Shown: positions 1 to 889 of the stretch, in pieces
Layout: the number at the start of each line of letters is the position of its first letter
How positions within the stretch are numbered: the stretch's first letter is position 1
From: Escherichia coli
Lineage (GTDB): Bacteria > Pseudomonadota > Gammaproteobacteria > Enterobacterales > Enterobacteriaceae
Direction: 5' to 3' (one strand)
DNA: 889 bases
NCBI RefSeq assembly: GCF_003334385.1
Contig: NZ_QOWN01000143.1
The notes under the pieces: model-generated
What the model was told of the DNA's origin: nothing
Seen by the model: only the letters and a program-made list of their open reading frames with translations
Database searches by the model: none
Program-made: the position numbers and the translations under genes

Positions 1-602
1 GACGACCACAGCGTTCTGTTCTGCAGTTGGTCCGTGGTGCTGTCCGCCGTCTCCCTGACCATCCGGATGTTAAAGGGGCGGGGAGGCAGATTATCCAGAA
101 TCACCGAGGCCAGGAACTGTGAGGTGGTCTTGCCGTTAATGGTGACATCCTTTTCTGTCACCCAGTTACCGTTACGCTGTAACTGAATCAGCAGACGGAC
201 AGAGGACGGATTACGGTCACCCTTTGACGTGGTCTCCACCAGTGACTGCACCCCGAAGGTAACCCGCAGACGGTCAATGTTCGCTGACGTGATGGTGCGC
301 GTCACCGGCTTTGCCTTCGTCACCTCCACGCCCAGTGCGGTTTCCGCCCCGGAGGACTCAAAGCCTTCCGGCGGTGTCTGCTCCTGCTCCCCGGCACGCC
401 AGACGGCGGTCACACCGTGTATCACGGGATTACCGTCCGTGTCCGTCAGCGGGGTTTTGTTCACCAGAATACTCTGCAGTCCCTTCACCGGGCCTTCTAT
501 CGGTCCCTCACCAATCGCATCAATCACACTCATCATCTGCGTGGATTTGAGATTATCCTTCGCCTCGCGCGGTGTGTGCGCCCTGCCGCCGCCTTTGCCC
601 AT
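1..602 (-). CDS. J: Host specificity protein J / tail tip central fibre protein, N-terminal 200 codons; start codon at 602..600, ORF continues beyond the left edge of the window
   Basis: Reverse complement of 1-602 is an uninterrupted reading frame: ATG at 602..600, then 200 sense codons with no stop (MGKGGGRAHTPREAKDNLKSTQMMSVIDAIGEGPIEGPVKGLQSILVNKTPLTDTDGNPVIHGVTAVWRAGEQEQTPPEGFESSGAETALGVEVTKAKPVTRTITSANIDRLRVTFGVQSLVETTSKGDRNPSSVRLLIQLQRNGNWVTEKDVTINGKTTSQFLASVILDNLPPRPFNIRMVRETADSTTDQLQNRTLWSS...). From memory this aligns colinearly with the N-terminus of phage lambda J (MGKGSSKGHTPREAKDNLKSTQLLSVIDAISEGPIEGPVDGL...TPPEGFESSG...TRTITSANIDRLRFTFGVQALVETTSKGDRNP...NLPPRPFNIRM...DSTTDQLQN.TLWSS) at high but not complete identity. 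A strong Shine-Dalgarno sits 7 nt upstream. No database search was run. Confidence 0.9.
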   Translation of the reverse strand, partial: MGKGGGRAHTPREAKDNLKSTQMMSVIDAIGEGPIEGPVKGLQSILVNKTPLTDTDGNPVIHGVTAVWRAGEQEQTPPEGFESSGAETALGVEVTKAKPVTRTITSANIDRLRVTFGVQSLVETTSKGDRNPSSVRLLIQLQRNGNWVTEKDVTINGKTTSQFLASVILDNLPPRPFNIRMVRETADSTTDQLQNRTLWS

Positions 603-606
603 TACA

Positions 607-615
607 TCACCTCTT
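607..615 (-). promoter_or_regulatory. Ribosome binding site (Shine-Dalgarno) of J
   Basis: Minus-strand sequence upstream of the ATG reads ggtAAGAGGTGAtgtaATG; the GAGG core (613..610) lies 7 nt from the start codon at 602. Confidence 0.65.
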
Positions 616-635
616 ACCGTGATAATTGTTCACTC

Positions 636-668
636 ACAAAAACAACAGGCACCCCGGAGGATGCCTGT
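636..668 (-). terminator. Rho-independent terminator-like hairpin on the tail-operon strand, about 35 nt upstream of the J start
   Basis: Minus-strand RNA: ACAGGCA-U-CC-[UCCG]-GG-G-UGCCUGU followed by UGUUUUUGUG. The 7 bp GC-rich stem (668..662 paired with 651..645) extends to about 10 bp via one U.G wobble and two C-G pairs around a 4-nt loop. On the plus strand the same hairpin is followed by ATCATGACTG (no U tract), so it is orientation-specific. Pairing was checked by hand only, not with a folding program. Confidence 0.55.
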
Positions 669-675
669 ATCATGA

Positions 676-711
676 CTGAATAAAAATTCTGAATATCTTC
701 ACATTTTCACA
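676..711. repeat. Short tandem direct repeats: CTGAATA x2 (676-682, 689-695) and TTCACA x2 (698-703, 706-711)
   Basis: Read directly from the sequence: gaCTGAATAaaaattCTGAATAtcTTCACAttTTCACAaa. The repeat periods are 13 and 8 bp. Function unknown; they overlap the candidate promoter and a CRP-like site. Confidence 0.5.
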
Positions 712-733
712 AACTGACTGTGGCGCTGATAAT
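706..733 (+). promoter_or_regulatory. Candidate sigma70 promoter firing antisense to the tail operon
   Basis: TTCACA (706-711; 5/6 to TTGACA), a 16 bp spacer, then GATAAT (728-733; 5/6 to TATAAT). Predicted transcription start near 740. It sits in the AT-rich spacer and a plus-strand terminator lies about 60-100 nt downstream. Hexamer matching only, no experimental support. Confidence 0.3.
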
Positions 734-739
734 TTCGCT

Positions 740-837
740 GCGTTAATTTTTTTTGTCGTGACATAAGAATAATTCCTTACACTTAATCTTCGTAACTCTC
801 CCGCAGTTCCTGTCCGCGATCACTGCGGGATTTTTTT
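740..837 (+). ncRNA. Candidate small antisense RNA of about 95-100 nt (hypothetical), from the predicted start near 740 to the plus-strand terminator
   Basis: No plus-strand ORF exists here: there is no ATG between 673 and 845, and GTG/TTG starts hit stops within 1-8 codons. The interval is bounded by a promoter-like element upstream and a strong intrinsic terminator downstream. I do not recognise it as a known sRNA family. Confidence 0.2.
799..837 (+). terminator. Rho-independent terminator on the plus strand (antisense to the tail genes)
   Basis: Perfect inverted repeat TCCCGCAGT (799-807) / ACTGCGGGA (822-830) gives a 9 bp stem with 6 G-C pairs around a 14-nt loop, followed immediately by TTTTTTT (831-837) and then ATTCTTTTT. 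On the minus strand the hairpin is preceded by an A-run and followed by GAGTTACGAAG, so it would not terminate tail-operon transcription. The loop is longer than typical. Confidence 0.6.
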
Positions 838-844
838 ATTCTTT

Positions 845-889
845 TTACCCCTGCCGCCCGATAACCACGACCTTTCCGCCCCCGCCTTC
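845..889 (-). CDS. C-terminal end (14 codons plus stop) of a probable tail assembly protein I homologue; gene enters from beyond the right edge
   Basis: Reverse complement of 845-889 translates as EGGGGKVVVIGRQG followed by TAA (stop at 847..845). From memory lambda I ends ...DEGDGGQVVVIGR, so the Gly-run plus VVVIGR motif matches, and I lies directly upstream of J in lambda. The fragment is very short, and the other two minus frames are also open across this edge, so the call rests on motif and synteny. Confidence 0.5.
   Translation of the reverse strand, partial: EGGGGKVVVIGRQG

Follow-up and report, generated by a model that had tools for sequence, protein, structure and literature searches.

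A PasB/EcOnc22-24-family small RNA gene antisense to the tail operon in the I-J spacer of an Escherichia coli lambdoid prophage

The window analyzed here, an 889-nt stretch of an Escherichia coli genome (RefSeq assembly GCF_003334385.1, contig NZ_QOWN01000143.1), spans the junction of the lambdoid tail genes I and J, both on the minus strand, and the 242-bp spacer between them (603-844) holds a small RNA (sRNA) gene of the PasB/EcOnc22-24 family, a unit that has already been described but whose allele in the window is uncharacterised. The gene, which we term the W allele, lies on the plus strand at 739-837 and has a predicted primary transcript of ~98 nt. A first-pass annotation of the window had proposed an expanded, AT-rich spacer carrying a self-contained transcription unit; the length that it gave for the spacer is borne out by the coordinates of the J start and the I stop. 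What we observe for this unit is its homology, its position and the conservation of its promoter, terminator and 5' helix, and we regard it as quite likely that the spacer is best described as an RNA moron, that is, a PasB/EcOnc22-24-family sRNA gene inserted between I and J of a lambdoid phage or prophage in the antisense orientation.

Homology to PasB and EcOnc22-24

PasB is encoded by prophage PP6 of the enteropathogenic E. coli (EPEC) O127:H6 strain E2348/69 (NC_011601.1, 1466343-1466261, minus strand, 83 nt; probe AATCCCGCAGTGATCGCGGAGCT; PMC8550237 Table S6), where it was confirmed by northern blotting and shown to depend on Hfq for its stability (Pearl Mizrahi et al. 2021, PMC8550237). 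Its rows in the supplement give the values 37 and 7, the column headers not being visible, and we read these as interactions found by RIL-seq, in which interacting RNAs are ligated and sequenced, and as nucleotides of the U-tract (PMC8550237). In E2348/69, where both genes are on the plus strand, gene I ends at 1466255 and gene J starts at 1466496; PasB is therefore antisense within a 240-bp I-J spacer and at its 3' end is 6 nt away from the I stop. The layout in the window is the same: the plus-strand T-run ends at 837, which leaves 7 nt before the I stop codon (845-847). The window spacer aligns with the PasB spacer throughout, base by base, and the PasB northern probe matches 810-832 with 3 mismatches in 23, where 0 such matches are expected by chance. 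Both units have the same three-part architecture and the same form of the J-proximal spacer module; their promoter blocks are 89% identical over 80 nt, and the terminator stem with its U7 tail is identical over 25 nt. The differences are found in the body, which is ~61% identical with in-dels (72% overall), in the terminator loop (14 nt in the window vs 11 nt in PasB) and in the -10 hexamer (GATAAT in the window vs TATAAT in PasB), and the targets of PasB are not transferable to the W allele.

The second described relative comes from the Sakai strain of enterohaemorrhagic E. coli (EHEC) O157:H7. EcOnc22, of prophage Sp15, was found as a peak in Hfq crosslinking and analysis of cDNA (CRAC), is ~85 nt on northern blots and is destabilised in the delta-hfq mutant (Tree et al. 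2014, PMC4104026 Table S2); EcOnc23 (Sp14) and EcOnc24 (Sp11) are its homologues (PMC4104026). The coordinates of all three fall within Sakai I-J spacers on the strand antisense to I and J, and their northern probe maps to the body of a PasB-like unit in Sp15, Sp14 and Sp11, with a score of 28 in each; local alignment of the same probe to the window stayed below the reporting score (at least 18) on both strands. EcOnc22-24 share with the W unit the antisense I-J position, the terminator stem, the AAUCUUC core, a tract of A-R-N repeats and the half-sites of a CRP-like site, but they have a third body allele (S), a replaced -35 region and leader, and a J-proximal module of the 'u8' form. On the current Sakai sequence, NC_002695.2, the EcOnc peaks first seemed to lie upstream of the promoter; the coordinates in Table S2 refer to NC_002695.1, and the shift between the versions is ~+139 as judged by AgvB1 and ~+141 as judged by the EcOnc22/23/24 probe, EcOnc15 being uninformative as a calibrator. 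The 2014 EcOnc coordinates are offset in NC_002695.2 by ~+139 to +141 nt between 1.94 and 2.90 Mb, and PMC4104026 Table S2, if used on the current Sakai sequence, would misplace sRNAs.

The probe and the coordinates link PasB and EcOnc22-24 into a single family, as alleles of one gene at a conserved position of the tail operon. This identity is not stated in the literature that could be searched, and the note for PasB in PMC8550237 Table S6 is blank. A 2026 survey (10.64898/2026.05.13.724894) makes no mention of EcOnc, of the antisense orientation or of the promoter, and the one other paper naming EcOnc22 in the literature searched gives its function as unknown.

A covariance model (R1) built from 12 sequences of the E type (E2348-like) and S type (Sakai-like), with zero W-type sequences, matches the plus strand of the window at 739-837 over its full length, positions 1-98 of the model's 98, with 69.6 bits and an E of 2.5e-15. 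The window unit scores the same as the copy in phage PhiR5_1, and the model has no match in lambda. Several features that define PasB and EcOnc22-24 are found in the window: the unit sits in the I-J spacer, antisense, with its 3' end abutting the I stop; the terminator has the CCCGCAG/CTGCGGG stem and, where a U tail of at least 6 is characteristic, a U7; and the AT-rich block with TTCACA-16-TATAAT is present at 673-733, albeit with the rare -10 GATAAT. Rfam 15, which is without a PasB family, gives at E <=10 only a sub-threshold, terminator-driven match to MicX (21 bits vs a gathering score of 75), with no match to AgvB or AsxR (RF02702, RF02703).

The anti-sRNAs AgvB and AsxR (Tree et al. 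2014, PMC4104026) show a similar design. They too are prophage-encoded, Hfq-bound and short, with their own promoter and terminator, and they combine a conserved 3' part with a variable target-recognition part and A-R-N motifs, i.e. a swappable specificity on a fixed scaffold. Unlike the W unit, they occupy the moron site downstream of PR' and not the tail operon, are 51-60 nt as opposed to a predicted 85-98 nt, and are unrelated in sequence; the window unit has neither their conserved ~42-nt 3' region, nor their length, nor the PR' site. Identity with AgvB/AsxR was rejected, since those sRNAs sit at the PR' moron site.

The comparison with lambda shows what has been added. There the I-J spacer is 60 bp (15445-15504), in keeping with the few tens of base pairs that the first-pass annotation gave for it, and is made up of a hairpin with a T-run on the sense strand and, after it, the J ribosome-binding site; the ~170-180 bp that the window has in excess, between the J-proximal hairpin and the I stop, is the sRNA unit. 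The spacer has a GC content of 0.393 (0.366 for 673-844), vs 0.591 for the flanking part of J and 0.667 for that of I, and is indeed more AT-rich than its coding flanks. The lom and bor genes of lambda are examples of morons. The moron concept for lambdoid phages is taken here from Juhala et al. 2000, as cited in PMC4104026, and the spacer resembles such elements in being extra DNA between genes that are nearly adjacent in a relative, in its own promoter and terminator, in its deviant base composition (GC 0.37 vs 0.59-0.67) and, by homology, in what would be expression from the prophage. It is unlike them in that the product is an RNA and not a protein and in that transcription is antisense to the host operon. 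The likeness to morons and small antisense RNAs that had been suggested from the sequence therefore stands: the unit is an insertion relative to lambda, it has a promoter and a terminator of its own, and its family is a known prophage sRNA.

That the moron might instead be of the classical kind, with the spacer encoding a small protein, is the least credible of the alternatives. Mechanical open reading frames (ORFs) of 17-26 aa are found on both strands, but none is kept in frame, length or sequence across the W, E, S and u0 forms, and the in-dels between alleles are not multiples of three; a protein-coding moron was rejected for want of a conserved ORF.

The whole window recurs in 150 phage records and in 1890 of 5426 complete E. 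coli genomes, the closest of which is 95.7% identical across it. Viral contigs from IMG/VR were sampled twice, anchored once on the terminator arm and once on the promoter block, and both elements are nearly invariant in more than 100 independent contigs. The extra DNA noted by the first-pass annotation (242 vs 60 bp in lambda) is real, and this wide recurrence and near-invariance show that the spacer did not arise as chance DNA. It is very improbable, in our view, that there is no RNA gene here at all, such that the promoter is fortuitous and the hairpins serve the tail operon as terminators, insulators or mRNA stabilisers. Consensus scans are admittedly not evidence of function, and a sense-strand hairpin precedes J even in lambda, which is without the unit; against this, the near-invariance of the promoter block and the placement of the terminator T-run on the antisense (plus) side only argue for a gene, and the transcripts of the right size, strand and position in two strains (published northerns and Hfq crosslinking) contradict the alternative. 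The claim of a plus-strand unit that is antisense to the tail operon and stops before entering I is supported by these same RNAs, PasB and EcOnc22-24, which homologous spacers yield.

Promoter, fold and terminator

The sRNA promoter, of the sigma-70 type, lies at 706-733 on the plus strand, where a promoter-like element had been noted, with the -35 TTCACA at 706-711, a 16-bp spacer and the -10 GATAAT at 728-733. It matches 10 of 12 consensus positions and is the sole such site in the window; the promoter scan made two overlapping calls at this one site, vs 0.5 +/- 0.7 in shuffled sequences, and none on the minus strand of the spacer, where a promoter would have implied a convergent sRNA pair. 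Across copies the element is nearly invariant, TTCACA-16-NATAAT being present in 115 of the 117 terminator-anchored copies. The -10 of the window is the exception: among 142 sampled copies, 123 have TATAAT, 18 have AATAAT and one has GATAAT, a rare variant that is probably weaker than TATAAT.

This raises the possibility that the window copy is decaying or weakly expressed, the T-to-G change in the -10 having largely silenced the gene in a family that is otherwise functional. The rarity of GATAAT (1 of 142, vs 123 with TATAAT) speaks for it, and the clearly disrupted copies at two other loci, L147 and L126, indicate that loss occurs. Nevertheless, 10 of the 12 consensus bases are still there in the promoter, and the critical A2 and T6 of its -10 are retained; AATAAT is common, and a northern signal is seen even for the Sakai allele, which has AATAAT together with a poor -35. 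The rest of the unit is also intact and scores as the PhiR5_1 copy does, and we consider decay improbable.

Upstream of the -35 is a nearly invariant AT-rich block (673-705, plus strand), invariant in the terminator-anchored alignment, which contains a CRP-like site at 688-703. The site, TCTGA-N6-TCACA, matches 9 of 10 core positions of TGTGA-N6-TCACA and is the only match in the window, where 0.03 are expected; all 117 terminator-anchored copies keep its half-sites, as does the Sakai allele, in which the central hexamer is different. The center of the site, at 695.5, is ~32-32.5 bp upstream of the first base of the -10 (728). Relative to a start at 739-741 this corresponds to about -43.5 to -45.5, which is upstream of the class II position (-41.5) by ~3 bp. 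A regulatory role for this site is putative. The non-activating and activating conditions used for PasB are reportedly lysogeny broth (LB) and glucose-containing Dulbecco's modified Eagle medium (DMEM). PasB is reported to be higher in the non-activating than in the activating condition (PMC8550237), and a catabolite link for the promoter of the PasB family would be only a guess.

The RNA is laid out in three parts. A 5' stem-loop is predicted at 747-771 from the model alignment, in which a U-run plus GUC (747-757) pairs with GACA and AAGAAUA (760-771). Three A-R-N repeats, AAGAAUAAU, at 765-773 overlap its 3' half; runs of three or more such repeats are found at this place in the 5' helix in all three alleles. 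A-R-N repeats are a motif bound by Hfq (Tree et al. 2014, PMC4104026), and the repeats here may provide binding to its distal face. The central region (772-798) is unpaired in the consensus structure and contains the family core AAUCUUC at 785-791, in which ATCTT is invariant in an alignment of 25 sequences; it is the likely seed, in agreement with the seed proposed for PasB just upstream of the terminator (10.64898/2026.05.13.724894). The Rho-independent terminator follows at 799-837, where the first-pass annotation had placed one ending just before the I stop: its arms (799-807/822-830) pair perfectly over 9 nt around a 14-nt loop, the core CCCGCAG/CTGCGGG being at 800-806 and 823-829, and they are followed by U7 (831-837). 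Of 31 distinct family sequences, 30 share an unaltered 7-bp consensus core of the stem, and the loop is variable. The RNA 753-837 folds with a z-score of -2.6.

In the mechanism we propose, the sigma-70 promoter would start a transcript near 739-741 that ends at the terminator just before I. The resulting RNA, with its 5' stem-loop of U-run and A-R-N tract, its unpaired AAUCUUC region and its terminator hairpin with U7, would have the standard build of an Hfq-dependent base-pairing sRNA. By analogy with its homologues, for which expression, size and Hfq dependence are on record, it would be made in the lysogen, stabilised by Hfq, and act in trans on host mRNAs and other horizontally acquired mRNAs via the unpaired region. 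The W targets are probably at least partly different from those of PasB, because the body is only ~61% identical.

Several points weigh against this reading. The ~83-85-nt, Hfq-dependent RNA is recorded for the E and S alleles only (PMC8550237, PMC4104026), and the window copy may be weakly expressed owing to GATAAT. The body is the least conserved part of the unit, which is unusual for a strongly constrained trans-acting seed. Across 31 distinct sequences, and as counted on an alignment fitted to the model, the 5' helix is paired in 97% of cells, vs 47-68% when the partners are slid, and three of its pairs change on both sides (e.g. U-A in 17 sequences and G-C in 11); these changes follow allele identity and so represent few independent events, while the terminator stem never varies and so gives no covariation evidence. 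Furthermore, the -10 predicts a start near 739-741, yet the published 5' end of PasB corresponds to ~753 (85 nt here), which would remove half of the proposed 5' helix. The discrepancy could come from processing or from imprecise mapping. The first-pass annotation expected a transcript of roughly 100 nt, and the -10 implies ~98 nt; the published RNAs of the homologues, at 83-85 nt, are slightly shorter. The T-run in the leader (747-754 in the window, and in homologues) varies from ~5 to 10 T, and the PasB 5' end falls at its last T.

Alleles, mosaicism and distribution

Copies of the spacer form a mosaic, the J-proximal part occurring in at least three unrelated forms and the sRNA body in at least three alleles plus chimeras, and all tested pairings of J-proximal form and body allele occur. 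The promoter block (673-746) is almost invariant across the sampled copies, and 117 of the 140 promoter-anchored copies have the terminator arm, most of the others retaining the stem. The mean pairwise identity is ~0.91 for the promoter, 0.68 for the body and 0.97 for the 3' arm of the terminator, compared to 0.90 for the adjacent coding sequence of I. One spacer form, 'u0' (343 bp; 5809-6151 of locus L003), stands apart in its J-proximal module, which is different and longer; it is combined with W and E alleles alike and is the form met most often in the IMG/VR sample. A 14-bp hairpin in it, flanked by T-runs on both strands, has the appearance of a bidirectional terminator.

This pattern bears on whether the unit works mainly in cis, tuning J expression or triggering processing of the late transcript, instead of or besides regulating in trans. 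The RNA lies entirely inside the late operon in antisense, has perfect complementarity to the intercistronic I-J stretch of the late tail mRNA, and is transcribed convergently with the late operon; a body free to vary (0.68) between a fixed promoter and terminator, and reassorting with the J-proximal modules in all combinations, is what a function of antisense transcription alone would allow. On the other hand, RIL-seq appears to give PasB many trans partners, its dependence on Hfq is seen in non-induced cultures, in which the late operon is silent, and the AAUCUUC core and the unpaired region are conserved within the body. The sRNA is also wholly intercistronic, antisense to the late mRNA but overlapping neither coding sequence nor a ribosome-binding site, and its body pairs with the J leader no better than shuffled sequences do (81% paired at least as well). 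A mainly cis-acting role thus seems to us unlikely, if less so than the decay of the window copy, and action in trans remains the interpretation that we prefer.

The W allele is the commonest of the three alleles. It is found in 1253 of the 5426 complete E. coli genomes (~23%) at 1749 places and in 36 phage records, Stx1a, Stx2a and Stx2c phages (the Shiga toxin, Stx, types) among its carriers; the E allele (PasB) is found in 887 genomes at 907 places and in 14 phage records, and the S allele (EcOnc22-24) in 542 genomes at 1241 places and in 5 phage records. The census of Zhu, Shabalina and Storz 2026 (10.64898/2026.05.13.724894) reported 1158 PasB hits and PasB in 24 phages, using blastn with the E2348/69 PasB at word size 28 and query coverage >75%, and our count of the E allele is close to that total. 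With the published PasB query, blastn at word size 28 gives no hit to the window, and at word size 11 it finds only the 25-nt terminator run, with a coverage of 43% even including a second, spurious 11-nt hit. The census thus very probably did not count the W allele, a failure that is a limit of the criterion and not of homology. The W-allele sequence had no match in the literature search, and no feature is recorded at the spacer in any matching database record.

A search for a degenerate promoter pattern in one genome per species gave two hits only, both of them E. coli prophage DNA filed under other taxa, so at that stringency there is no evidence for the unit outside Escherichia/Shigella, although a scan for an exact pattern could miss diverged copies. 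The hits are W and S units in L157, a contig of a Collinsella sp. metagenome-assembled genome (JAIJJM010000066.1), and L158, from Parendozoicomonas haliclonae (NZ_FWPT01000051.1); the E. coli lambdoid tail DNA in them probably reflects mis-binning or contamination and not true hosts. Disruption sets in immediately past the -35 hexamer in the copies at L147 (477-666, minus strand) and L126 (955-1144). The L147 copy has a foreign insertion that starts with TGAACCGCCCCGGGAATCC and has the ORF MTKNTRFSPEVRQRAV..., which we take to resemble an IS3-family element; the 36-aa start of it, a fragment too short for the purpose, gave no hit in NCBIfam. In L126, what follows the promoter block is unrelated sequence, taken to be from inside J, which would indicate a deletion or rearrangement.

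A wider interpretation, which we put forward tentatively and would not insist on, is that the unit is a modular cassette in which a fixed promoter, possibly responsive to cyclic AMP (cAMP)-CRP, and a fixed terminator enclose a swappable, freely recombining body. PasB and EcOnc22-24 would then be one family whose commonest allele, W, has never been studied and would have targets distinct from those of PasB and EcOnc22, and whose numbers the censuses would undercount by more than 2-fold.

Tail-gene context and significance

The sRNA unit is flanked in the window by the 3' end of the tail assembly gene I (845-889, minus strand), with its TAA stop at 847-845 and a C-terminus (...GGGGKVVVIGRQG) matching the I ORF of L003, and by the 5' part of the tail tip/host specificity gene J (1-602, minus strand), whose start codon ATG is at 602-600 and whose minus strand reads MGKGGGRAHTPREAKDNLKST... 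The names I and J follow the annotation of the homologous regions in phage PhiR5_1, E. coli E2348/69 and O157 Sakai. A putative Shine-Dalgarno region of J, AAGAGGUGA, is read at 607-615 on the minus strand.

Just upstream of J, the terminator scan and an inverted repeat mark a hairpin resembling an intrinsic terminator (635-668, minus strand), whose arms in 668-645 form 10 bp, with one mismatch, around a loop of 4 and precede UGUUUUUGUG at 644-635. All forms of the I-J spacer, that of lambda included, have a GC-rich hairpin with a T-rich run after it on the sense strand, at 20-35 nt upstream of J, and these hairpins are unrelated in sequence but alike in position and shape (635-668 in the window; 763-790 in lambda, L123; ~5895-5945 in L003; ~830-865 in L152). 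Their folding z-scores are -3.9 in the window, -5.8 in Sakai, -2.9 in lambda and -5.2 in the 'u0' form. The hairpin looks like an intrinsic terminator or an mRNA-stabilising hairpin that would be read through by Q-modified polymerase, and we know of no named lambda element at this position.

As an sRNA family at the I-J position is already experimentally established, the finding adds no new category and is an incremental one. Its substance is that PasB of EPEC and EcOnc22-24 of EHEC, treated separately in the searchable literature, are alleles of one gene, and that the W allele is commoner than either of the studied alleles, unannotated, and invisible to the settings of the only census. The constancy of the promoter and terminator around an exchanged body points to selection on when the RNA is made, with freedom in its targets, and this is of relevance to predictions of the rewiring of host regulation by Stx and other lambdoid prophages.

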